A DNA stretch of 12,642 nucleotides from the NCBI GenBank assembly GCA_964419375.1, contig CAYQQT010000049.1:1-12642 (forward strand), read 5' to 3'. Positions 1,918 through 12,642 of this stretch are shown piece by piece (the stretch's first letter is position 1; each line of letters starts with the position of its first letter). The DNA comes from an uncultured bacterium (GTDB lineage: Bacteria > Methylomirabilota > Methylomirabilia > Rokubacteriales > CSP1-6). The notes under the pieces were generated by a model. That model had not been told where the DNA came from and searched no databases. It saw only the letters and a list, made by a program, of their open reading frames with translations. A program made the translations under genes and the position numbers.

Positions 1918-2430
1918 ATGGCCACCACCGCCCTCACCGTGCGGCGCGGCACGGCGCGCGACGTGCCCACCATCGTGGCGCTCATCCGCGGGCTCGCCCG
2001 GTACGAGCGCCTCGCCGCGCAGATGAAGGCCACCGCGCGCGCCATCCGCCGCGACGGCTTCGGCCGGCGCCGGTACTTCGAGACGCTCATCTGCCGGCGC
2101 CGCGGCGAGCCCATCGGCTTCGCGCTCTACTTCTTCACGTACTCGACGTTCATGGGCAAGCCCACGCTCTACCTCGAAGACCTCTTCGTCGTGCCCGCCG
2201 CGCGCGGCGAGGGGGCGGGGCGCGCGCTTCTGGCCGCCCTCGCGCGCCTCGCCGTACGGCGTGGCTGCGGGCGCATGGAGTGGGCCGTGCTCGACTGGAA
2301 CCGCCCCGCCATCCGCTTCTACGAGCGGCTGGGCGCGCGGCTTCGCAAGGAATGGATCCTCACGCGGGTGACGGGCGCCGCGCTGCGGCGCCTCGCCCGC
2401 GGCGGCAGCCTCAGCGATCGAGGCCGTTGA
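1918..2430 (+). CDS. GNAT family N-acetyltransferase (spermidine/spermine-N1-acetyltransferase-like)
   Basis: The ATG at 1918 lies 5 nt after the M20 stop codon, so the two genes are probably translationally coupled. The 170-aa product has SSAT-like features: ARYERL, the acetyl-CoA-binding segment VVPAARGEGAGRALLAALARLA, and RFYERLGA. The ORF-track entry 1225..2430 is real only from position 1918 onward. Confidence 0.85.
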   Translation: MATTALTVRRGTARDVPTIVALIRGLARYERLAAQMKATARAIRRDGFGRRRYFETLICRRRGEPIGFALYFFTYSTFMGKPTLYLEDLFVVPAARGEGAGRALLAALARLAVRRGCGRMEWAVLDWNRPAIRFYERLGARLRKEWILTRVTGAALRRLARGGSLSDRGR

Positions 2431-3523
2431 GGCGCGCGCCCGCGCACTCCCACAGCAGCGGGATGGCGACGGCGACGCTGAGGCCGCGCGCGTGCGCGCG
2501 CGACTGGCCGCCCGGGGTCTCCGCGAAGTCGATCACCCGCCGAGCGGAGGGGCAGAGGTCGATGGCCGGGTCCTGGCCGAGGGCTTCCCACATTTCCTTG
2601 CTGTCCAGCGTGCGCGCCCTCCACGCGGCGGCGGCGAGCACGTGCAGCTCCATCGTGTCGCGCACGCCCGCCTTCAGCTCCGGCGCGGCCGCCACGCCCA
2701 GGTACCGGTTGACGTCGGCCTTGGCGAACGCCACGCGGCTCGAGTACACGGGGTACGGCACCGTGGGCGTGCTCACCGCCTGGATGTCCTTCAGCGCGCG
2801 GAGCGCGTCGGCGAACGCCGCGCGCTCGACCTCCGACGCGGGGGGCGGCGCCACCGCCGTGGGCGCGGCCGTCCGGGACTCCAGCCGCGCGTCCTCGTCG
2901 AGCGCCTGCAATCCAAGCCACAACACCACGCCGCCGATCACGAGCACGACCACGACCGCGCCGAACCAGAAGCGCGACGTGGTGGGGCGCGGGGCGGCGC
3001 GCGCCGCGGTCTGCGAGTCCATCGCGCGCTTCATGGCGGCGTCGAGATTCAGGCGCGGCGGGACGGGACGCTCTCGCGGGCGGGCCGGCGCCGCCGCCGG
3101 CTTCGCGGCAGGCGGCTCTGCTTCGATCGCCAGGCGGAGCGCCTCGTCGAGGTCCGGGCTGGGCGATCGCGAGGCGGCGGGCGCCGGGCGGGCCTTCGAA
3201 TCGGCCGCCTCCTCCGCCTCCAACGCCTGCCTCAGCGCTTCCTGCAGGTCGCCGCTCGGCGCGGGCGCCTTCGGCTTTTCAGGCGCCCTCGCCGCCGCAG
3301 GCCCCTTCGGCAGCGCGGGCGACGCGTCAGCGCACGGCGGCGCGCTCAGCGGCAGAGGGAGCTTGGCTTCCTCGGGCGTGATCCACCGGTCCATGGCGGC
3401 GCCGCACGCGCACGTCAGCGTGAGCAGGTAGCCGCCGCCCGTCTGCGTGGTGGCATTCGGCGTGATGCCGCCGCACGCCGCGTGGGAGCGCGCGAAGCGC
3501 TCGATATCGCCGAAGTCGCTCAC
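2411..3523 (-). CDS. Hypothetical single-pass membrane protein with Cys/His-containing N-terminus, tandem Ala/Glu/Pro-rich repeat, one TM helix and a ~160-aa C-terminal (probably periplasmic) domain
   Basis: Third-position GC is high from the GTG at 3523 down to the stop codon at 2411-2413. The GTG overlaps the TGA of the upstream gene (GTGA, 3520-3523). An alternative ATG start lies at 3394 (MDRW). The TM helix is FWFGAVVVVLVIGGVVLWLGL, at about 2900-2971. The stretch between 3523 and the ORF-track start at 4018 is Arg-rich shadow frame and is not part of the gene. Confidence 0.6.
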   Translation of the reverse strand: MSDFGDIERFARSHAACGGITPNATTQTGGGYLLTLTCACGAAMDRWITPEEAKLPLPLSAPPCADASPALPKGPAAARAPEKPKAPAPSGDLQEALRQALEAEEAADSKARPAPAASRSPSPDLDEALRLAIEAEPPAAKPAAAPARPRERPVPPRLNLDAAMKRAMDSQTAARAAPRPTTSRFWFGAVVVVLVIGGVVLWLGLQALDEDARLESRTAAPTAVAPPPASEVERAAFADALRALKDIQAVSTPTVPYPVYSSRVAFAKADVNRYLGVAAAPELKAGVRDTMELHVLAAAAWRARTLDSKEMWEALGQDPAIDLCPSARRVIDFAETPGGQSRAHARGLSVAVAIPLLWECAGARLNGLDR

Positions 3524-4233
3524 GGAAGGGGCCCGTCGACCCCGGTCACCTTCCAGGCCGCGCCGTCGGCCGCGACGTGCACGAGCAGGATCTTCGAGAG
3601 TGGCGCGAACGTGCCCTCGCGCACGGTCACGCGGAACTCGTGCCACGTGGGCGACGCCCGCACGGGTGCCACGCGCTCCCAGCAGCCGGAATCGACGAGG
3701 CGGAAGTCTTCCAGGCGCAAAATGCGCACCTGCTCCCTCCACGCAGGCGATGCCTCGCCGCCGCTCCATACCGCGTCGCCCGCCTCGCCCTTGCGCCACG
3801 CTTCCACGACGGCGAGGGCGGTGCTCAGCCCCAGCTCCTGGCCCGCGCGCGGCGGGCACGCCGTGCGCCCGAGCACGACGTTCGTAGTGGGCAGGACCAG
3901 GAGCAGCAGACCGGCGATGGCGAAGGCGAGGCCGCTCACCGCCCGCACGACGGACCGGCGCGAGGTGACGGCCACGCCCAGCACGAGGGCGACGACGAGG
4001 ACACCGACGGCGAGCCACTGCAGTGGCGCCACCATCCCTCGGTGCCCCGCGTCATCGAGCAGGCGCAGGAGGACGACCACGAACGGTGACAGGAAGACGC
4101 ACATCCACACCACGATCCACGGGTGCGCAGCCCACCACGCGAAGGGCGCCGCGTACGGCGACACCTTCTTCTTGGGACGCGGGCGCGGGCGGGGCGGGGG
4201 CGGAGGCGGCGGCGGCCGTCGGATGATGGACAC
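3520..4233 (-). CDS. Hypothetical polytopic membrane protein (N-terminal poly-Pro/Lys tract, three predicted TM helices, ~115-aa C-terminal soluble domain)
   Basis: In this frame third-position GC is high only from about 4233 downward. The GTG at 4233 lies 8 nt after a weak AGGG Shine-Dalgarno-like sequence and 10 nt after the SPFH gene's stop codon. An alternative ATG start lies at about 4104 (WMCVF). The three hydrophobic segments are WIVVWMCVFLSPFVVVLLRLL, LQWLAVGVLVVALVLGVAV and VSGLAFAIAGLLLLVLP. The stop codon is TGA at 3520-3522. I found no recognisable family. Confidence 0.55.
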   Translation of the reverse strand: MSIIRRPPPPPPPPRPRPRPKKKVSPYAAPFAWWAAHPWIVVWMCVFLSPFVVVLLRLLDDAGHRGMVAPLQWLAVGVLVVALVLGVAVTSRRSVVRAVSGLAFAIAGLLLLVLPTTNVVLGRTACPPRAGQELGLSTALAVVEAWRKGEAGDAVWSGGEASPAWREQVRILRLEDFRLVDSGCWERVAPVRASPTWHEFRVTVREGTFAPLSKILLVHVAADGAAWKVTGVDGPLP

Positions 4234-4243
4234 TAAGGGAACC

Positions 4244-5321
4244 CTATGGCCGCACGATCGAAGCGTCAAGGGGGCGACCAAGGTTGGCCGCGGCATGGGC
4301 GCCCGCGCGGCTGCCCCAGTGGTACGCCTCCTCGAAGAGCGAGAACCCGGAGAGATCGGAATGGGCGAGGTGCACGGGACCGCGCAGCGCGTCCACGGCC
4401 GCCCGTCGCGCGGCCCCGCACACGAAGCCGACCTCGGGCCGGACCATCGCGTGGCCGTAGGGCGCCACGTCGATACGGCTGGCCCATCGCCTGCCCCATC
4501 GCCACGCCCGCGCCGAGACCGACGCCGGCGCCCGCGGCGCCGTCTTCGTTGGCGGCCGCGATCGGGATCGACTGCGCGGTCTGGTACTGGGAGTAGCGCG
4601 TCATGTCGCCCACGATGCCCATGCCGATGCGCTCGTCGAGGCGCTTCCGCAGCTCCTCGGGCAGCGAGACGTTCTGCACCTGGAAGGCCTCGAGTGACAA
4701 TCCGAGATCGCCGAAGCCGGCGCGCACCTTGTCGGCAACGGCCGCGCCGAGCTCCACCTGGTTGGCGGCCATGTCGAGGAAGGGCACGCCGCTCTCGCCG
4801 AAGTGGTCGGTGAGGACGGCCACCACGGAGTTGCGCAGCTGGCCCTCGAGATCGCCGATGGTGTAGGTGTCGCGCGTGCCCGACACCTTGGTGAAGAAGA
4901 CCTGGGGGGAGGTGATCTCGAAGGAGTAGATGCCGAAGGCGCGCATGCGGACGGCGCCGAACTCCTTGTCGCGGATGGTGATGGGATTGGACGTCCCCCA
5001 CTTCTGGTTGATGCGCAGCCGCGTGAAGAAGAAGTAGACGTCGCTCTTGAAGGGCGACTCGAAGAGCTTGTCCCAGTGCGCGAGGTCGGTGAGCAGCGGG
5101 ATGTTCTGCGTCTTGATCGTGTGCTGTCCGGGCCCGAAGAGGTCCGCCGCCTTGCCCTGGTGCGCGAAGAGCGCGGCCTGCGTGTCGCGCACGATGAGCT
5201 GGGCGCCCTGCTGGATCTCGGCATCGCGCATGGGGAAGCGCCAGGCGAGAACCTCGTCGCTGTCCTCGGTCCACTGGATGATGTCGATGAACTGCTTCTT
5301 GAGGAAGTCGAGGAATCCCAT
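4244..5321 (-). pseudogene. SPFH/band-7 (flotillin-like, YdjI-type) protein gene with a +1 frameshift near 4470-4485 (either a disrupted gene or a sequence error)
   Basis: The ATG at 5321 is preceded by GGGGAGG with a 5-nt spacer. The N-terminus MGFLDFLKKQFIDIIQWTE is typical of the YdjI-like SPFH family. The domain frame has high third-position GC down to the Gly-rich linker AGVGLGAGVAMGQAMGQ, after which third-position GC collapses and the translation turns Arg-rich. Coding signal resumes one nucleotide out of phase (RIDVAPYGHAMV...IVRP) and ends at TAG 4244-4246. Confidence 0.7.
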
Positions 5322-5360
5322 GCGCACCTCCCCTCACAGACTCGACATCAGATGCTCGCG

Positions 5361-5390
5361 GGTCTAGGTGCCCGCGCGGGGAAGTGTCAA
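5361..5390 (-). promoter_or_regulatory. Candidate sigma70-type promoter for the SPFH operon
   Basis: On the minus strand there is a -35 TTGACA (5390..5385), an 18-nt spacer, and a -10-like TAGACC (5366..5361). The predicted 5' UTR of about 30 nt contains the GGAGG Shine-Dalgarno sequence. Confidence 0.35.
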
Positions 5391-5413
5391 GAAAAGGTCG
5401 GGCCGGCGCGTGT

Positions 5414-5442
5414 TTGACCGCGCGGGAGCGTTCGTGTAGATT
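5414..5442 (+). promoter_or_regulatory. Candidate sigma70-type promoter TTGACC-17-TAGATT for the histone-like gene, placing the TSS at or next to the ATG (leaderless)
   Basis: TTGACC lies at 5414-5419, followed by a 17-nt spacer, TAGATT at 5437-5442, and the ATG at 5450 (7 nt after the -10). There is no Shine-Dalgarno sequence. Confidence 0.45.
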
Positions 5443-5449
5443 CCGCGGC

Positions 5450-5680
5450 ATGAAGAAACGTGCTCCCGCGAAGAAGCAGGCTGCCGCGCGCAAGCCGGCG
5501 GCGATGAAGAAGGCCCCCTCGAAGCCCACGGCGGCGAAGTCGGCCGCGAAGAAGCCCGCCCCCCGCGCCGCCGCCGCGCCGAGCAGCAGGCGCCCGCAGG
5601 CGCCCGCGCAGAGGGCCGGGTACACCCCCCCCCCGCTGAAGACCGACGGCTTCCCGGCGTTCCGCTACCCGCCGCAATAG
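5450..5680 (+). CDS. Small highly basic Lys/Ala/Pro-rich protein (histone H1-like / nucleoid-associated type)
   Basis: The 76-aa product begins MKKRAPAKKQAAARKPAAMKKAPSKPTAAKSAAKKPAP and ends in a non-basic Pro-rich tail. Third-position GC is high from the ATG at 5450, whereas the upstream in-frame ATG at 5384 sits in sequence with low third-position GC. The stop codon is TAG at 5678-5680. Confidence 0.6.
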   Translation: MKKRAPAKKQAAARKPAAMKKAPSKPTAAKSAAKKPAPRAAAAPSSRRPQAPAQRAGYTPPPLKTDGFPAFRYPPQ

Positions 5681-5705
5681 CGCCGGGCACCCGGGGGCGG
5701 CATCG

Positions 5706-6110: not shown

Positions 6111-6856
6111 CGCGCAGGTCGCTGACGATCATCCTCGCGCTGCTCTCCTTCGTCGGCTGCGCGGCCTTCGAGCGCACCACCGTGAACTGGTGGCAGGCGA
6201 GCCGCGAGCCGTCGGGGCAGGCGCCAAATCCGGCAATCACCCGGGAGGCGGTGGTCCAGGTCTACGCCGCGCGCACGGTGGGCTGGCGCGGAGTGTTCGG
6301 CGTCCACACGTGGGTGGCGGTCAAGCGCGAGGGGGCGGCGGCGTACCGGCGCTACGAAGTCATCGGCTGGGGCGTCGAGCGCGGCGCGCCCGCGGTGCGC
6401 GTCGATCGCACCGGTCCCGACAACGACTGGTTCGGGGCCAGGCCGGAGCTGCTCGTCGACGTGCGTGGCGCTGATGTCGACGCGCTCATCACGAGAATCG
6501 AGGCGGCGGTGGCCGCCTATCCGTATCCCTCGACCTACCGGACGTGGCCGGGACCGAACAGCAACACCTTCGTCGCCCACGTGGGCCGCGCGGTCCCCGA
6601 GCTGCGCCTGGTGCTGCCGCCCACGGCGATCGGCAAGGACTTCCTGCCCGGCGGCGCGTTGATAGCGCCGAGTCCGGCGGGACGCGGACTACAGCTTTCA
6701 TTCCTCGGGGTTGCCGGTATTCTCGCGGGCTGGGAGGAGGGGCTGGAGATCAACGTGCTCGGGCTCACCTTCGGCATCGACGTGAAAGCCCCCGCGCTCA
6801 AGCTGCCAGTGGCCGGACGGGTGGGCGTTACGCCGGCTTTACACGGAGGACGTTGA
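6107..6856 (+). CDS. Hypothetical lipoprotein
   Basis: The GTG at 6107 overlaps the upstream TGA (GTGA). The lipoprotein signal LTIILALLSFVGC contains a lipobox (FVGC). About 225 aa of mature protein follow (WVAVKREG, PGPNSNTFVAHVGR), for which I cannot name a family with confidence. The stop codon is TGA at 6854-6856. Confidence 0.6.
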   Translation: MTRRSLTIILALLSFVGCAAFERTTVNWWQASREPSGQAPNPAITREAVVQVYAARTVGWRGVFGVHTWVAVKREGAAAYRRYEVIGWGVERGAPAVRVDRTGPDNDWFGARPELLVDVRGADVDALITRIEAAVAAYPYPSTYRTWPGPNSNTFVAHVGRAVPELRLVLPPTAIGKDFLPGGALIAPSPAGRGLQLSFLGVAGILAGWEEGLEINVLGLTFGIDVKAPALKLPVAGRVGVTPALHGGR

Positions 6857-7919
6857 AGGCGCTCACCGGCTTCGAGAAGCCCTTGAGCGTGAGCTCCCCC
6901 ACCGGCTCCACCTCGACGAGGTCTTCCACCGCGCCCCACAGCCGGCGCGAGATGAGGATCTCCCCCGCCTTCGCTTCGCCGCACAGCCGCGCGGCGAGAT
7001 TGGTGACGATGCCGATGGCGCCATAGTCCCAGCGGCCTTCGAAGCCGATGGCGCCGATGGTGGCATAGCCCTGGGCGATGCCCACGCCGAAGGCGAGGTC
7101 GTAGCCGCGCTTGCGCCAGCCTCCCATGAGACGCTGCACGCCCTCACGCATGGCGAGGGCCATGCGCACCGCCCGCTCCTGCGCGTTCGGCACCGGCACG
7201 GGGTCGTTGAAGAAGATCATCATGCCGTCGCCGGTGAAGCGCTCCAGCGTGCCCTCGTGCTCGAGGATGATCCGGCCCATGGCCGCGTGGTAGTCGCGCA
7301 GCACGCCCATCACCTCTTCCGGGTCGGCCGTCTCCGCGAAGGCGGTGAACCCGCGCAGGTCGAGAAAGGCCACCGTGATGTCGCGCCGGTGGCTCTTGAG
7401 CGGATCCTCGGCGTCGCCGCTGAGGATGGCTTCCGCGAGCGCGGGCGAGAAGAACCGCTTGAGACGGCCCAGCCGCTCCAGCTGCGTCACCTGCTCCTGC
7501 ACGCGCCGCTCGAGGGTCCCGTTGAGGTCGGCGAGCCGGTCCCACAGCTCCTTGACCCGCAGCAGCGAGCGCACGCGCGCGAGCATCTCGGGCTGGTTGA
7601 TGGGCTTGGTGAGGAAATCGTCGGCCCCCGCCTCGATGCCCTTCACGCGCTCCTGCACGGGATCGAGCGCGGTCACCATGACCACGGGGAGCATGGCGGT
7701 GGCGGGATTGTCGCGCACCTTGCGGCACACCTCGTAACCGCTGAGCCCGGGCATCATCACGTCGAGCAGCACGAGGTCGGGGCGCTCGCGCTCGATCCTC
7801 TCGAGCGCCTCCACGCCGTTGGCGGCGGTGCTCACCGTATAGCCCTTCACGGTGAGGAGATCGGCGAGGAGCTTGACGTTGACGGGCGTGTCGTCGACGA
7901 CCAGGATGCGCGCGCTCAT
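6828..7919 (-). CDS. Response regulator with C-terminal class III adenylate/guanylate cyclase (CHD) output domain
   Basis: The start is ATG at 7919 (MSARILVVDD). The receiver domain contains LLDVMMPG and GADDFLTKP. The cyclase domain contains ITVAFLDLRGFT (metal-binding Asp) and RFTGDGMMIFF. The ATG overlaps the stop codon of the upstream receiver gene (ATGA). Confidence 0.85.
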   Translation of the reverse strand: MSARILVVDDTPVNVKLLADLLTVKGYTVSTAANGVEALERIERERPDLVLLDVMMPGLSGYEVCRKVRDNPATAMLPVVMVTALDPVQERVKGIEAGADDFLTKPINQPEMLARVRSLLRVKELWDRLADLNGTLERRVQEQVTQLERLGRLKRFFSPALAEAILSGDAEDPLKSHRRDITVAFLDLRGFTAFAETADPEEVMGVLRDYHAAMGRIILEHEGTLERFTGDGMMIFFNDPVPVPNAQERAVRMALAMREGVQRLMGGWRKRGYDLAFGVGIAQGYATIGAIGFEGRWDYGAIGIVTNLAARLCGEAKAGEILISRRLWGAVEDLVEVEPVGELTLKGFSKPVSAFNVLRVKPA

Positions 7920-8293
7920 GGCCGCGGCAGGGCCGCCTGCACCGCCGCCAGGAACGCCTTCACGTTGATAGGCTTGGACTGGTAGCCGTCGAAGCCCGCC
8001 GCGAGGATCTTCGAGCGGTCCGTGCTCATGGCGGAGGCGGTGACGGCCAGGACCGGGATCGCGCGCGTGGATTCGTCGGCGCGGATCTGCGCCAGCGCTT
8101 CGATGCCGCTGATGCCCGGGAGCTGGATGTCCATGAGGATGAGCGCCGGCCGCAGCTCGCGCGCGAGCCGGACGCCCTCCTCGCCCGTCTCCGCCTCCGC
8201 GAGGCGGTAGCCCTTGAAGGCGAGCACGTCGCGGACGAGCTTGCGGTTTTTCTCGTTGTCCTCGACGATCAGGATGAGCTCGCCCGCCATCAC
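7916..8293 (-). CDS. Single-domain CheY-like response regulator (receiver only)
   Basis: The roughly 125-aa product contains ILIVEDNEKNRKL, LILMDIQLPGISG and GFDGYQSKP. Its start (GTG 8293 or ATG 8290) overlaps the kinase stop codon at 8290-8292. Confidence 0.85.
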   Translation of the reverse strand: MMAGELILIVEDNEKNRKLVRDVLAFKGYRLAEAETGEEGVRLARELRPALILMDIQLPGISGIEALAQIRADESTRAIPVLAVTASAMSTDRSKILAAGFDGYQSKPINVKAFLAAVQAALPRP

Positions 8294-10641
8294 GCCACCG
8301 GGATGGTGAAGGTGAAGGTGGATCCCTCACCCACCTGGCTCTTCACCCACATGCGGCCACCGTGCAGCTCGACGAACCGCCGCGCGAGCGCGAGGCCGAG
8401 GCCGGTGCCCTCGCGCTTCTTCGCGTAGTCGGTGCCCACCTGCCGGAACTCCTCGAAGACCGCCTCCTGATCTTCGGGGGCGATACCCACCCCGGTGTCA
8501 GTGACGGAGATCTCGGCGGCGCCGTCCACCCGCGCTGCGCGCACCTGGATGCGGCCGCCCTCGGGCGTGAACTTCACCGCGTTGGACAGCAGATTCAGGA
8601 GAACCTGCTTGATCTTGCGCTCGTCGCCGCGCACGGTGCCCAGCCGTGCGTCCACCGCCGTGGCGAGCGCGAGGCCGTGCCGCGCCGCCCGCTCGCGCAC
8701 GAGGACGAGCGCGTTGTCGATGGCCTGCGGCAGATCGAACTCCGCCGCCTCCAGCTCCATGCGCCCCGCCTCGATCTTCGACAGGTCGAGGATGTCGTTG
8801 ATGAGCGACAGCAGGTGCCGGCCCGACGACAGGATGTCGTTCAGATACTCCTCCTGCTTTTCGTTCAGCTCGCCGAACATCCGCTCCAGCAGGACCTCCG
8901 AGAAGCCGATCACCGCGTTGAGGGGCGTGCGCAGCTCGTGCGACATGTTGGCGAGGAACTGCGACTTGTGCTCGTTGGCGATCTCGAGCTGCCGCGTCTT
9001 CTCCTGCGTCTCGTTGAGAAGGCGCACGTTCTCGATGGCGATGACGGCCTGGTCGGCGAAGGTCTTCACGAGGCGAACTTGCTTGTCGCTGAAGGGCCGC
9101 ACCTCCTTGCGGTGGAAGCTGAGGGCACCGACGAGCTCGCCCTCCTTCAGCATCGGCACGGCGAGAGCGGATCGCATCCCTTCGCGCCGATAGACTTCGG
9201 GCAGCGAGAATCGGGGGTCGGTCTGGACGTCGGCGCTGTGCACTGGCGCCAGCTCGAGGCCGACCCGTCGCAACGGCGTTTCGGGGCCGGGTGGGACGAC
9301 CATCGCGCGCACTTCGTCGGCGAATGGCGCCTCCGAGCTGATGGCGGCGAGACGGAAGGCGCCGTGTTCGAACCTCCACACCGCGCCGTACGCCGCCTCG
9401 CAGAGGCGCAGTGCGTTGGCGAGAATTCGGTCGAAGACGGGCTGAACGTTGGTGGGGGAGCTGGAAATGACGCTCAGCACCTCGCCCGTCGCCGTCTGTT
9501 GCTCGAGCGCCTCGGTGAGCTCGCGCGTACGCTCGTCCACCCGTTGCTCGAGGGTGGCGTACGACTCCTGCAGCTGCTCCGTCATCTGGTTGAACTGCTC
9601 GGCGAGCACCTCGATCTCGTCGCCCGTCTTCAGCTCCAGCCGCTGCCGCAGCTCGCCGGCGCCGATCTTGGCGGCGCCTTCCTGCAGCGCGCGGATGGGC
9701 TGCACCATGCGACGGGCGAGGATCAGGCTTGCCACGATGGACATGGCGACGCCGAGCACGATGAGGATGACCGTGCGCTGAATGGAGGCGCGCAGCGTCG
9801 CGAACGCCTCCCCGAGGGGCTGTTCGGCAAACACGAACCAGCGCAGCGACGGGATGTCGGCGTGCGCGGTGAGCACGCGATGCCCCTGGAGGTCGCGCGC
9901 GATGGGCACAGCGGCGGCGCCACCGCCGCCCCTGCCGCGGAAGATCGCCGCCGTGACCTGGTCGAGAGCGGCCATGTTCGTCTTCTGCAGCACGAGGCTG
10001 ATGTCGGGATGGGCCACCAGCGCCCCCGCCCCGTCCACCACGTAGGCACGGCCGGCGGTGCCGATCTTGATGCGGGAGACCACGTCCCAGATGAACTTGA
10101 GATTCACCTCCGCCACGATGACGCCACCCCCGCCCGTCTGCGCCATCGCGATGCTCATGTACGGCTCCGACTCCTTGCGGAAGTACACCGGGCCGTAATA
10201 CGTCCGTGCCGCGCGCGCCTGCTGGAACTTGGGGTCCGTGGAGAAGTCGGTGCCGCTCCCCGCCACGTCCATCGCCAGGCGCGACACGCGCAGCTGCTCC
10301 TTGCCCGCCGCATCGAGGTAGCTGAGCTCGGTGATGGCGGGCACCTGGCGCAGGAGGCGGAGGAAGTCGACCCGTCGCTGCTCGATGGCGCCGGGCGCGG
10401 GCACGAGCTGCGGCTGCGTCGTCCAGCCGATCTGCCGCTCGATCTCCTTGACGAAGCTCTCGATCTGCGCGGCGGCGGCCGCCGCCTTCTCGCGCTGCAG
10501 GCTGACGAGCGCCGCCTGGTTCTCCTGGTAGGAGAAGTAGAGCTCGAGCGCGCCGCTCGCGAGGAGGGCGCCGCTCACCAGTCCCACGAAGACGACGACG
10601 TACTTGCGAAAGAGCCGGCCGCGCGGCATCAGCGGAGGCAT
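8290..10641 (-). CDS. Sensor histidine kinase: TM, Cache-like periplasmic domain, TM, HAMP, GAF, HisKA, HATPase_c
   Basis: The 783-aa product has two hydrophobic segments (YVVVFVGLVSGALLASGAL and VILIVLGVAMSIVASLIL) flanking about 250 aa. It then has a HAMP-like linker, a GAF-like region, the H-box SHELRTPLNAV, the N-box LLSNAVKFT, and the G-boxes DTGVGI and GTGLGLALARRFVELHGG. Confidence 0.85.
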   Translation of the reverse strand: MPPLMPRGRLFRKYVVVFVGLVSGALLASGALELYFSYQENQAALVSLQREKAAAAAAQIESFVKEIERQIGWTTQPQLVPAPGAIEQRRVDFLRLLRQVPAITELSYLDAAGKEQLRVSRLAMDVAGSGTDFSTDPKFQQARAARTYYGPVYFRKESEPYMSIAMAQTGGGGVIVAEVNLKFIWDVVSRIKIGTAGRAYVVDGAGALVAHPDISLVLQKTNMAALDQVTAAIFRGRGGGGAAAVPIARDLQGHRVLTAHADIPSLRWFVFAEQPLGEAFATLRASIQRTVILIVLGVAMSIVASLILARRMVQPIRALQEGAAKIGAGELRQRLELKTGDEIEVLAEQFNQMTEQLQESYATLEQRVDERTRELTEALEQQTATGEVLSVISSSPTNVQPVFDRILANALRLCEAAYGAVWRFEHGAFRLAAISSEAPFADEVRAMVVPPGPETPLRRVGLELAPVHSADVQTDPRFSLPEVYRREGMRSALAVPMLKEGELVGALSFHRKEVRPFSDKQVRLVKTFADQAVIAIENVRLLNETQEKTRQLEIANEHKSQFLANMSHELRTPLNAVIGFSEVLLERMFGELNEKQEEYLNDILSSGRHLLSLINDILDLSKIEAGRMELEAAEFDLPQAIDNALVLVRERAARHGLALATAVDARLGTVRGDERKIKQVLLNLLSNAVKFTPEGGRIQVRAARVDGAAEISVTDTGVGIAPEDQEAVFEEFRQVGTDYAKKREGTGLGLALARRFVELHGGRMWVKSQVGEGSTFTFTIPVA

Positions 10642-10669
10642 GACCGCATTCTAGCCGGAATCAGCGGCA

Positions 10670-11152
10670 TCACTCCGCTTCGCCGAGCACCCGGTCGATG
10701 GCCTTCTCCAGGCAGCGCTTGATCTCGTCGCGGCAGGCGCGGAAGGTGTCCTCGCCCTGCCCCGCGGGGTCGCCGATGTCCCCCGCCTCGCCCGCGAGCT
10801 CGCGCAGCGTGACGACGGTGGGCGCGCCCGCCGCCGCCAGCTCGCCCACGATGCGCTTCTGCTCCACCGTCATGGTCACGATGAGGTCGGCGCCCGTAAT
10901 GAGGTCGGGGTGAGCCCGGAGCGCGGTGGAGACGACCGCATCCTCGGCCACGAGGAGACCGTCCTCCTTGAGCGCCAAACGCGCGTCGAGGGAGGCGATC
11001 ATGCCGTCACGCGCCCACGGCGCCACCCCCGCCGAGCGCACGCGCACGCGATCGCCGGCGCCGCGCGCGGCGAGCATGCGGTCGAGGAGCAGCTGCGCCA
11101 TCACGCTGCGGGCGGTGTTGGCGTGGCACACGAACAGCAGCGCTTTAGCCAC
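10670..11152 (-). CDS. Low-molecular-weight protein tyrosine phosphatase / ArsC-like (CX5R) family protein
   Basis: The start is GTG at 11152 (VAKALLFVCHANTARS), giving the P-loop C-X5-R-S. A DP-loop (IGDPAG) and a C-terminal C-X6-C pair (CRDEIKRC) follow. The GTG overlaps the 3' end of the upstream thioredoxin-fold gene by 8 nt. Confidence 0.8.
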   Translation of the reverse strand: MAKALLFVCHANTARSVMAQLLLDRMLAARGAGDRVRVRSAGVAPWARDGMIASLDARLALKEDGLLVAEDAVVSTALRAHPDLITGADLIVTMTVEQKRIVGELAAAGAPTVVTLRELAGEAGDIGDPAGQGEDTFRACRDEIKRCLEKAIDRVLGEAE

Positions 11153-12188
11153 GCGTGTCCGGCAGCGGCTTGTAGTACGGCTGGCCGCCGCCCACCCACG
11201 CCGCCAGCATCTCGCGGAACTGCGGGCCCATGGGATCGATGCCGCGCATGGGCATGCTGCCGCGCCGGATGGTGAAGTCATGCGGGGCCAGCTCGCCCGC
11301 CTTCACGAAATGGCGCTCGGCGGCGGCCTTCCTCGACTGCTGGAAGAGCCACTCCGCGAGCCCGAACTCGGCGCGCGCCTGCTGATCGGACGCGGTGGGG
11401 ACGGGCAGCAGCGCGCGCGCCTCCTTGGGCGCGAAGCCCCCGCCCTCCCCGCGCACCCACCTGCGGAGCGCGTTGAGATGGATCTCCGCGGTGAGACCCG
11501 TGATCTGCTTGTAGGTGTCGGTGCCGAAAGCGACGTCGTGGGGCCGCACGATGCGTCCCTTCTCGTCGATCCACAGCACGGTGGGAACGTTGACGATGTT
11601 GTAGAGCTCGGCGAGCGCGTGGCGCGTGTCGATCAGCGACGGGTGCGCGGGGCGCGCCGCCTCGATCCACGGCCGCGCGTCCTCCGCGCTCTTGTCGAGG
11701 GCGACCGTGATCACGGTGAAGCCGAAGCCCTTCAGCTCCTCGTACATGGCCTGCCACACCGGCAGGTCGAGGCGGCACCCTCACCAGGAGGCGTAAGCGA
11801 CGAGCAGCACCTTCTTGCCGCGATGCTCGGAGAGCGAGTGCAGCCGCCCCGCGAGATCGGGCAGCGTGAAGTCCGGCGCTTCCAGCGACCCCAGCGCCTG
11901 CGCGCGCTCGTGCGCGGACACGCCCAGGTACGCCGCCGACTCCGCCACGTCGAGCGCGAGCGGCCGGTCCAGGGCGGCCGCCAGCGCGGCGAGATCGATG
12001 CCGCGCTCGTCGGCGAGCGCGGCGGCATCCGCCACCGGCACGCACATGCTGTCGCTGCAGAGCTGGCCGCCGTGAAACTCCCAGCCGAGCGCGGTGTGCA
12101 CCGCCTCCGCGGGCACGCGCACGCGCCCGCCATCGATGGTGGCGGGCACCACCACCGCGCGTCCCTCGTCGAGAATGGTGAAGGTCAT
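11145..12188 (-). CDS. Candidate selenoprotein: cytoplasmic TlpA/ResA-type thioredoxin-fold thiol-disulfide oxidoreductase with in-frame UGA (Sec) in the redox motif and N- and C-terminal extensions
   Basis: The two ORF-track entries 11781..12188 and 11145..11759 are in the same frame and separated only by TGA 11781-11783. Third-position GC is high on both sides. The sequence around the TGA reads GKKVLLVAYASW-[TGA]-GCRLDLPVWQAMYEELKGFGFTVITV, and VPTVLWIDEKGRIV follows later, matching the TlpA/ResA pattern (FWASW-CxxC-K...P...Y...G...V..V). A SECIS-like hairpin starts 9 nt after the TGA. The start is ATG at 12188, 2 nt after the NUDIX stop codon. Confidence 0.7.
11738..11772 (-). promoter_or_regulatory. 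Bacterial SECIS-like stem-loop immediately 3' of the in-frame UGA
   Basis: The mRNA reads UGA GGGUGCCG [CCUCG] A [CCUGCC] GGUGU [GGCAGG] CCAUGUA [CGAGG]. The upper stem is 6 bp (11766-11761 with 11755-11750), with a 5-nt apical loop GGUGU 21-25 nt after the UGA. The lower stem is 5 bp (11772-11768 with 11742-11738), with an asymmetric internal loop between the stems. Confidence 0.5.
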
Positions 12189-12190
12189 GC

Positions 12191-12642
12191 TTACCCCCAG
12201 GCCCAGACGGGCTGCTCGAAGTGGTCGACACGCGTGGGACGGCCGTGGAGCACGACCTCCCGGAGCTGGAAGATCACGGCCGCGGTGGGCGCGTGCACGA
12301 GCGTGGACAGGATCGGCACCTGGATGACGGGCCGGTCGCTCTCGGGAATGCTGATGAGCCGCGGCACGTCGGGATGGTCGAGGTCGCTCACGGGCACGCG
12401 GAAGACGGCGGCCACCTCCTCGGGATTGGGTGTGAGCTCCACCGGCTCATCGCCACCCGCCCACACCACCACCGGCGTGATGATATAGCCCGAGCGCGTG
12501 CCGTAGTCGTCGAGCACGCCGAGGACCGCGCCCTCGTCGAGGGCGAGGCCGAGCTCCTCGTGCAGCTCGCGGAGGGCGGCGCGCTCGGCCGTCTCCCCCG
12601 CGTCGATGCGGCCGCCCGGCAGCGCCCACTGGCGCGCGTGCG
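12191..12642 (-). CDS. NUDIX hydrolase (5'-partial; start lies beyond the window)
   Basis: A canonical Nudix box, [24 protein letters not shown] (GX5EX7REUXEEXGU), is encoded at about 12540-12610. It lies in frame with, and upstream of, the GTG at 12517 that the ORF track lists as the start. The stop codon is TAA at 12191-12193. Confidence 0.8.

Follow-up and report, generated by a model that had tools for sequence, protein, structure and literature searches.

In E. coli fdhF, the selenocysteine insertion sequence (SECIS) has a 17-nt upper stem-loop that starts 11 nt after the UGA codon; G23/U24 are located in its loop, and U17 is bulged (PMC8659212). Itoh et al. described the SECIS as a 6-8-bp stem with a conserved loop G about 20 nt past the UGA, which is bound by winged-helix domains (WHD) 3/4 of SelB at the mRNA entrance (PMC4605307). 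The bacterial SECIS (bSECIS) consensus of the bSECISearch model (Zhang & Gladyshev), as given in Fig. 2 of PMC13188914, has a loop of 3-9 nt, an upper stem of 4-16 bp, a G in loop position 1 or 2 that is usually followed by G or U, a UGA-to-loop spacing of 16-37 nt, and a minimum free energy (MFE) of -7.5 kcal/mol or lower. As for the protein side, a family has been published as "Prx-like (UGC-containing)", with 46 selenocysteine (Sec) sequences and 855 Cys homologues in the Global Ocean Sampling data (PMC2398784). Here I analysed a 12,642-nt stretch of DNA from an uncultured Rokubacteriales bacterium of the Methylomirabilota (contig CAYQQT010000049.1, hereafter the window), in which an earlier note made from the sequence alone had pointed to a SECIS-type hairpin downstream of an in-frame UGA. 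In all probability, judging from its conservation among related genes, this 17-nt hairpin is a bacterial SECIS inside the coding region of a TlpA/Prx-like thiol-disulfide oxidoreductase with a UGA-encoded catalytic residue (W-U-G-C).

The putative selenoprotein gene occupies positions 11145..12188 on the minus strand (ATG at 12188), as judged from its translation and its Pfam and NCBIfam matches, and consists of 347 codons including one in-frame UGA. With the U of the UGA numbered +1, the predicted Sec codon (11783..11781, minus strand, +1..+3) occupies the catalytic site of the U-G-C redox motif. The UGC codon at 11775..11777 (minus strand) provides the resolving Cys, and it is TGC in 82/85 and TGT in 3/85 of the orthologous sequences described below. 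The mRNA around the site reads GCC UCC UGG UGA GGG UGC CGC CUC GAC CUG CCG GUG UGG CAG GCC AUG UAC GAG GAG, which is translated as A S W U G C R L D L P V W Q A M Y E E. The 17-nt core CCUGCC-GGUGU-GGCAGG lies at 11750..11766 on the minus strand, and its stem starts 14 nt past the UGA, inside the continuous 347-codon frame. It is composed of the upper 5′ arm CCUGCC (11766..11761, minus strand, +18..+23), the apical loop GGUGU (11760..11756, minus strand, +24..+28, or 21-25 nt after the A of the UGA), and the upper 3′ arm GGCAGG (11755..11750, minus strand, +29..+34), in which the inner 5 bp, CUGCC/GGCAG, pair 11765..11761 with 11755..11751. The earlier note had drawn this hairpin together with a lower stem, and its coordinates are all correct on the minus strand. 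Its observation that the UGA is the sole in-frame stop holds for the whole 347-codon frame, and the 20 nt between the A of the UGA (+3) and the loop (+24) fall within the 16-37 nt spacing that it had invoked. The 17-nt upper hairpin in isolation folds at -10.0 kcal/mol, and the isolated 35-mer with both stems folds as had been drawn, at -14.9 kcal/mol. When the 5′ region up to +9..+15 was removed, mimicking a ribosome on the UGA, the pairing probability of the upper stem was 0.98-1.0.

The window hairpin agrees with every item of the bSECIS consensus listed above from that figure, including its location directly 3′ of an in-frame UGA within an open reading frame (ORF); it has a loop of 5 nt (GGUGU), a stem of 6 bp, a spacing of 20 nt, and an MFE of -10.0 or -14.9 kcal/mol for one or both stems. 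With E. coli fdhF it shares a 17-nt upper stem-loop and an exposed loop G-U (G23/U24 in fdhF, G25/U26 here). In contrast to fdhF, the stem begins 14 nt rather than 11 nt after the UGA, there is no bulged 5′ U corresponding to U17, the sole unpaired U is found 3′ in the loop, where it begins the Trp codon, conservation does not extend to the lower helix, and the primary sequence of the stem is unrelated. The Moorella thermoacetica SECIS in complex with SelB WH3-4 (PDB 1WSU, as cited in PMC4605307) is likewise short and GC-rich, and SelB recognises its loop with the C-terminal winged-helix domains; it belongs to a formate dehydrogenase gene of another organism. A literature look-up of the loop sequence CCGGUCUGG and its variants, which was meant to verify the Moorella apex, returned unrelated papers only. 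The apex in the Moorella structure is presumably ...GCC-GGUCU-GGC..., which would be nearly identical to the family consensus CUGCC-GGUCU-GGCAG; this resemblance is a lead, not a result. The fdhF loop, GGUC, is contained in the commonest loop of the present family, GGUCU.

Is the hairpin conserved among genes that keep the UGA? A scan of GTDB representative genomes provided 80 orthologous loci. The nearest relatives are Methylomirabilota/Rokubacteria, and most of the 80 loci belong to Candidatus Rokubacteria/Methylomirabilota, the remaining ones being those of Binatia, Chloroflexota (Tepidiformaceae and Dehalococcoidia), and delta- and gammaproteobacterial metagenome-assembled genomes (MAGs). 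The active-site codon is TGA in 78/80 loci and in 6 tandem paralogues, and the conservation counts rest on 85 TGA-forms (hereafter Sec-forms). The inner stem CUGCC/GGCAG is identical in 85/85, synonymous sites included, with a median Jukes-Cantor nucleotide distance of 0.45 substitutions/site elsewhere in the gene. The sixth, outer pair is C:G in 70, U:A or U:G in 2, and absent in 13 of them. To look at synonymous sites, codons were threaded on the protein alignment, and the per-column codon entropy was compared with the gene-wide usage over 128 conserved degenerate columns. The two least variable of the 128 columns are Leu+6 (CUG in 85/85) and Gln+10 (CAG in 85/85), residues being counted from the Sec residue, and these are exactly the two degenerate codons within the stem. 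Asp+5 (GAC in 81/85) is also near the bottom of the ranking, while the wobble sites of Gly+1, Arg+3, Ala+11, and Leu+16 vary freely. Since the lowest codon variability is found at the stem codons and the flanks are normal, selection is likely to have acted on the RNA and not on the protein alone. In about 1 Mb of retrieved DNA, all 105 occurrences of the motif CTGCCNG[TG]NTGGCAG fall in this gene family. Thus, a dispersed repeat, or a SECIS motif common to other genes, was rejected.

Some of these loci deserve a comment of their own. Six Tepidiformaceae (Chloroflexota) loci (L045, L050, L051, L062, L070, and L076) have two tandem gene copies about 1.1 kb apart (at 2268 and 3396 in L045), each with an in-frame TGA and an identical CUGCC-GGUCU-GGCAG hairpin. 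The contigs labelled 'Candidatus Nitrosocosmicus sp.' (an archaeon; L010) and 'Klebsiella pneumoniae' MAG (L058) carry the bacterial gene, but most likely they were mis-binned, and the gene does not really occur in these organisms. RNAalifold also proposed a 4-bp hairpin spanning the UGA (UGGU/GCCG with the loop GAGGNU; window 11773-11786, minus strand), in which two pairs are present in 85/85 and the others in 82-83 sequences. Its bases are almost wholly dictated by the invariant W-U-G-C-R, and thus this hairpin is uninformative.

The arms of the SECIS candidate are themselves translated, and the hairpin might be a passive by-product of the peptide; D-L-P-x-W-Q in GC-rich codons (CUG CCN ... 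UGG CAG) self-pairs, and the RNA structure would then be functionless. Because the conserved peptide L-P-x-W-Q self-pairs under GC-rich codon usage, the same peptide without the UGA had to be compared. A pattern scan of metagenomes and three look-ups gave 83 unique DNA segments that encode the same peptide DLPxWQ in Cys-forms, which have TGC or TGT in place of the TGA. The 5-bp stem is intact in all 85 Sec-forms and in 46/83 (55%) Cys-forms (Fisher p=2e-14). Thus, more than half of the genes that need no SECIS keep the stem, which speaks for the by-product explanation and means that the arms are partly set by L-P-x-W-Q. On the other hand, the Leu+6 codon, invariably CUG in Sec-forms, is CTG in 53 (65%), CTC in 17, CTT in 8, and CTA in 4 of the Cys-forms, and position +10, invariably CAG in Sec-forms, is CAG in 54, CAA in 7, and another residue in 21. 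Residue +8 is Val in 81 and Gly in 4 Sec-forms, which gives the loop G-U or G-G, whereas in Cys-forms it is Ala in 29, Gly in 15, Val in 16, Leu in 10, and others. As residue +8 is mostly non-Val in the Cys-forms, the G-U loop is usually absent there. On a joint tree, the Sec-forms make essentially one cluster with about 5 Sec/Cys switches. The Cys-forms nested in the Sec cluster (L080, L083, L170, L081/L151/L166, and L084) lack either the GU loop (Val to Ala/Ser) or one stem pair (CAG to CAA), which looks like the decay of a fossil SECIS and is consistent with relaxed constraint after Sec-to-Cys reversion. Every one of the constraints seen in Sec-forms is relaxed in the Cys-forms, nested ones included. 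These comparisons argue that the peptide predisposes to the hairpin but only the UGA-carrying genes hold it fixed, and that the hairpin is under RNA-level purifying selection specifically in the latter. The 85 Sec-forms and 83 Cys-forms make a clean natural experiment in which RNA-level selection is laid over a coding sequence.

The apical loop provided a further line of evidence. Among the Sec-forms, the loop is GGUCU in 55, CGUGU in 23, GGUGU in 3 (the window type), CGGGU in 3, and AGGUU in 1. The second loop base is G in 85/85, and the third is U in 81 and G in 4; the family consensus is N1-G-U-N4-U. The N1 and N4 positions, both of which are codon wobble sites, are G:C in 55, C:G in 26, A:U in 1, and unpaired in 3 sequences. 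In an all-against-all scan of the 75-column alignment, N1:N4 had the top mutual information (0.81 bit), the next pair being non-complementary (0.47 bit). On a neighbor-joining tree made without the hairpin region, each of the two loop positions changes 11 times, and the joint state changes 12 times as compared with 26 for shuffled tips. Thus, about 11 repeated, coordinated switches took place on the tree, with both sites changing together. In the Val-containing Cys-forms, N1:N4 is paired in only 8/16 (p=8e-6). At the apex, the N1:N4 pair is thus likely to close the loop on top of the 5-bp stem, leaving G-U exposed and the U 3′ of it unpaired. This differs from the bSECIS consensus as drawn in PMC13188914, where N1 pairs one base further 3′ (N1-G-(G/U)-N-N2), whereas here the partner of N1 is loop position 4 and only G-U lies between the paired bases; the window itself has an unpaired G.G at these positions. 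A by-product of the peptide does not account for covarying wobble positions, and together with the codon fixation in Sec-forms and its relaxation in Cys-forms, this leaves that explanation very improbable. The stem conservation that had been proposed as a check in the earlier note was thus found for the inner stem in every UGA-keeping sequence, accompanied by the covarying loop pair. Its central claim of a SECIS-type hairpin stands, on the invariance of the stem, the synonymous constraint on the stem codons, the relaxation in Cys-forms, and the agreement with the bSECIS consensus.

Several observations weigh against a SECIS, or at least call for caution. The window has a G+C content of 71%, and 5.9% of its positions (both strands) have a stem of at least 6 bp with a GU-containing loop at a SECIS distance. 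In addition, 12-13% of its 35-nt segments fold at -14.9 kcal/mol or lower. The MFE z-score is an unremarkable -1.28 in the 61-nt context and +0.30 in the 131-nt context, and the hairpin is not in the MFE structure of either context. The frequency of comparable hairpins and the non-significant z-scores favour the by-product explanation as well. The earlier note therefore overstated its case in arguing that coincidence could hardly produce such a good hairpin at this offset; about 1 position in 17 has one at this G+C content, and the peptide sets part of the arms, as seen in the Cys-forms that carry the 5-bp stem. Single-sequence thermodynamics is uninformative at 71% GC, and within the window the hairpin is only marginally beyond chance. 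What gives it significance is the comparison with related genes, not the sequence of the window by itself. An Rfam scan of the whole window (E<=10) found no SECIS family anywhere and no credible RNA family at the site. Since the bacterial SECIS models of Rfam are lineage- and gene-specific, this negative speaks only against membership of those particular families. The orthologues come mostly from MAG contigs and are not phylogenetically independent of one another, which makes the Fisher p-values optimistic. Moreover, the window carries the rare unpaired G.G loop variant (3 sequences), which lacks the N1:N4 pair; on the tree the window sequence sits among C:G relatives, as expected of an intermediate. 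Finally, no tRNA-Sec or sel gene was found within the 12.6-kb window.

Does the functional element extend below the 17-nt core? The lower stem drawn in the earlier note consists of the 5′ arm CCUCG (11772..11768, minus strand, +12..+16) and the 3′ arm CGAGG (11742..11738, minus strand, +42..+46), and it is separated from the upper stem by an unpaired A (11767, minus strand, +17) and a 7-nt internal loop (11749..11743, minus strand, +35..+41). The functional SECIS might be this full two-helix structure, with the lower stem contributing as the lower helix does in E. coli fdhF, where loss of lower-region pairing cuts read-through by about 25% (PMC8659212). The folding of the isolated 35-mer is in line with this, and so are a codon bias compatible with a lineage-specific contribution (CUC in 43/45 for Leu+4 and UAC in 54/57 for Tyr+13) and some U:G/U:A alternation at columns 25:57. 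Over the 85 orthologues, however, only 77.6% of the lower-stem cells are paired and there is no real covariation; of the five pairs, the innermost G:C is broken in only 4 of 85 sequences, as compared with 13-34 for each of the other four. The alignment gave no mutual-information signal for the lower stem, and RNAalifold dropped it. In the window, the 5′ arm, which is present but unsupported as a conserved element, would probably be within or at the edge of the ribosomal mRNA channel once the UGA has reached the A site. The pairing probability of the lower stem is 0.09 or less in every window context reaching +75, and it rises to about 0.5 only if the sequence is cut at +60, since a stronger, non-conserved downstream hairpin (about +40..+72) captures the 3′ arm. 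An alternative extension with a bulged A was also tried and was unconvincing (G28:C47 paired in 68/85 and C27:G48 in 42/85), doing no better than the lower stem. These findings make the two-helix structure unlikely, and the functional unit is very probably the 17-nt apical hairpin. The downstream hairpin (window about 11712-11744, minus strand) is formed by the codons of E-L-K-G-F-G-F (GGAGCUGAAG...CUUCGGCUUC) and dominates the folding 3′ of the SECIS candidate; as this region is variable in orthologues, it is probably incidental.

The encoded protein has an N-terminal domain, a thioredoxin fold of the TlpA/AhpC-TSA/Redoxin type with the active site W-U-G-C(-R), and a C-terminal domain. In the read-through protein, the AhpC-TSA/Redoxin fold covers residues 103-221, and both Pfam matches (AhpC-TSA 2.1e-17 and Redoxin 2.5e-14) pass the cutoffs. 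The best NCBIfam match by far is NF041054, 'ResA-like WAxxUGC motif-containing protein' (E=4.8e-71, 239.9 bits), a curated selenoprotein model of equivalog type (WAxxUGC_long) with a cutoff of 300 bits. The match is strongest across profile positions 5-205 of 354. The window protein falls short of the cutoff, as do four orthologues (247.5-277.3 bits). As these scores are below 300 bits, the soil/groundwater clade (Rokubacteria, Binatia, and Chloroflexota) was treated as a sister subfamily of NF041054, and the profile scores argue that it is one, not a member of the equivalog. The two have in common the AhpC-TSA/Redoxin thioredoxin fold, the U-G-C active site with Cys homologues, and a long three-domain architecture, whereas the window protein has Y-A-S-W-U-G-C instead of W-A-x-x-U-G-C. 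A literature search for 'WAxxUGC/ResA-like' found nothing. Both the fold and the U-G-C motif were found in the window protein, which places it in the UGC-containing Prx-like/TlpA selenoprotein family (PMC2398784, PMC13188914).

A protein search gave two populations of homologues: hundreds of 200-208-aa fragments (72-96% identity), which are gene calls beginning just past the UGA, and full-length proteins of about 345 aa (50-61% identity). In the 15 Cys homologues that were aligned, the full-length proteins have Cys exactly at the UGA column (ASW-C-GCR as compared with ASW-U-GCR). Thus, the in-frame TGA aligns with Cys and the flanks are conserved on both sides, which is the Sec/Cys pair that Zhang & Gladyshev used for the identification of selenoproteins (PMC1088965). 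It was noticed that public gene callers systematically split the predicted selenoprotein at the UGA into a 135-aa ORF and an ORF of about 200 aa, as in a 3139-bp Logan contig of SRR6868923 (L175; 135 aa + 200 aa). Hundreds of the C-terminal fragments (e.g., P0001-P0120) are found in protein databases under the names 'hypothetical protein' or 'AhpC/TSA family'.

Such gene calls and database entries would be expected if the UGA were a genuine stop, due to a pseudogene, a split gene, or an assembly error, and the locus produced two polypeptides of 135 aa and about 200 aa; moreover, the neighbouring genes normally end at TGA. However, 85 orthologues of several phyla have the TGA exactly in the column of the catalytic Cys, and the frame is intact and conserved on both sides of it. 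The 3′ fragment would have no catalytic residue and only half of the thioredoxin fold, and a plain stop leaves the downstream synonymous constraint and the loop covariation unexplained. I therefore give a genuine stop next to no chance. A global reassignment of UGA was excluded, since five neighbouring genes stop at TGA. For annotation, once the SECIS is taken into account, the two fragments become a single 347-aa selenoprotein with a U-G-C active site.

If the UGA is read through, it might still be recoded without a SECIS, by near-cognate read-through as Trp, Cys, or Arg, with the hairpin acting as a generic stimulator and not as a SelB site. Downstream hairpins can stimulate stop-codon read-through in general, and the involvement of SelB is here inferred rather than directly shown; both points count for this explanation. 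Nevertheless, the fixed loop G-U and its covarying flanks point to sequence-specific recognition rather than a mere roadblock, the redox-active Cys/Sec site belongs to an already catalogued selenoprotein family, and the lineage is rich in selenoproteins. SECIS-independent recoding is thus extremely improbable.

Returning to the SECIS reading, a mechanism may be sketched by analogy with E. coli and Moorella. The hairpin would form just outside the mRNA entry channel as the ribosome approaches. The C-terminal winged-helix domains of SelB, with GTP and Sec-tRNA(Sec), would bind the apical loop via the exposed G25/U26. With the UGA in the A site and the stem 14 nt beyond the codon, the tethered SelB would deliver Sec-tRNA(Sec) in competition with RF2. 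The ribosome would then melt the hairpin and translate it as D-L-P-V-W-Q-A. SelB binding, selenium dependence, and the presence of selA, selB, selC, and selD in this genome are likewise presumed. As no tRNA-Sec or sel genes lie in the window, Sec competence is inferred from the relatives and from a reported Methylomirabilota MAG for which 63 selenoprotein genes were predicted (PMC13188914).

The selenoprotein gene candidate lies between two genes on the same strand. Upstream, a NUDIX-like gene (12191..12642, minus strand; read from the sequence) is truncated by the end of the window and stops 2 nt before the ATG. Downstream, a low-molecular-weight phosphotyrosine phosphatase (LMW-PTP)/ArsC-like gene (10670..11149, minus strand; Pfam LMWPc, PF01451, 2.6e-19) overlaps the stop codon of the selenoprotein gene, although its start is approximate. 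Among the 80 loci, a NUDIX homologue is found upstream in 41 and the LMWPc gene downstream in 44, and sometimes one extra gene of about 1 kb intervenes. The juxtaposition of a thioredoxin-fold selenoprotein and an ArsC/LMW-PTP-type enzyme suggests a possible redox partnership. The apparent gene order over window positions 6828-12642 (minus strand) is NUDIX, Sec-TlpA, LMW-PTP/ArsC-like, a HAMP/GAF histidine kinase, and a response-regulator adenylate/guanylate cyclase. Farther away, the region of 2400-5700 has long overlapping ORFs on both strands (2492-4813, plus strand, 773 aa; 3520-5625, minus strand, 701 aa; 2411-4018, minus strand, 535 aa), which gave no Pfam match at 1e-5.

Both the protein family and the type of element were already known, and in this sense the finding is correct but ordinary. 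It is conceptually modest and leaves the current understanding of bacterial Sec insertion unchanged. What is added here is the contrast between Sec-forms and Cys-forms, the covarying loop-closing pair, and evidence for a peptide-imposed proto-hairpin recruited as a SECIS. I would tentatively go one step further, to an idea that is possible but rather less than probable: the family may carry a discrete, ultra-conserved SECIS subtype, CUGCC-N1-G-U-N4-U-GGCAG, in which the N1:N4 Watson-Crick pair offers SelB a two-base G-U platform and leaves a U unpaired 3′ of it, and which was exapted from the proto-hairpin imposed by D-L-P-x-W-Q on Cys-type ancestors. If this is true, the subtype would explain the success of the Cys-to-Sec conversion in this family and how one identical SECIS can work in five phyla or more. 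The N1:N4 swaps found in nature, roughly 11 in number, and the rare G.G intermediates, such as the one in the window, would then be a ready-made mutational series for the recognition of the loop by SelB. For the organism, the hairpin and its UGA would mean a further selenoprotein in a genome of the Rokubacteria/Methylomirabilota type, and it is in this lineage that very large selenoproteomes have recently been predicted.

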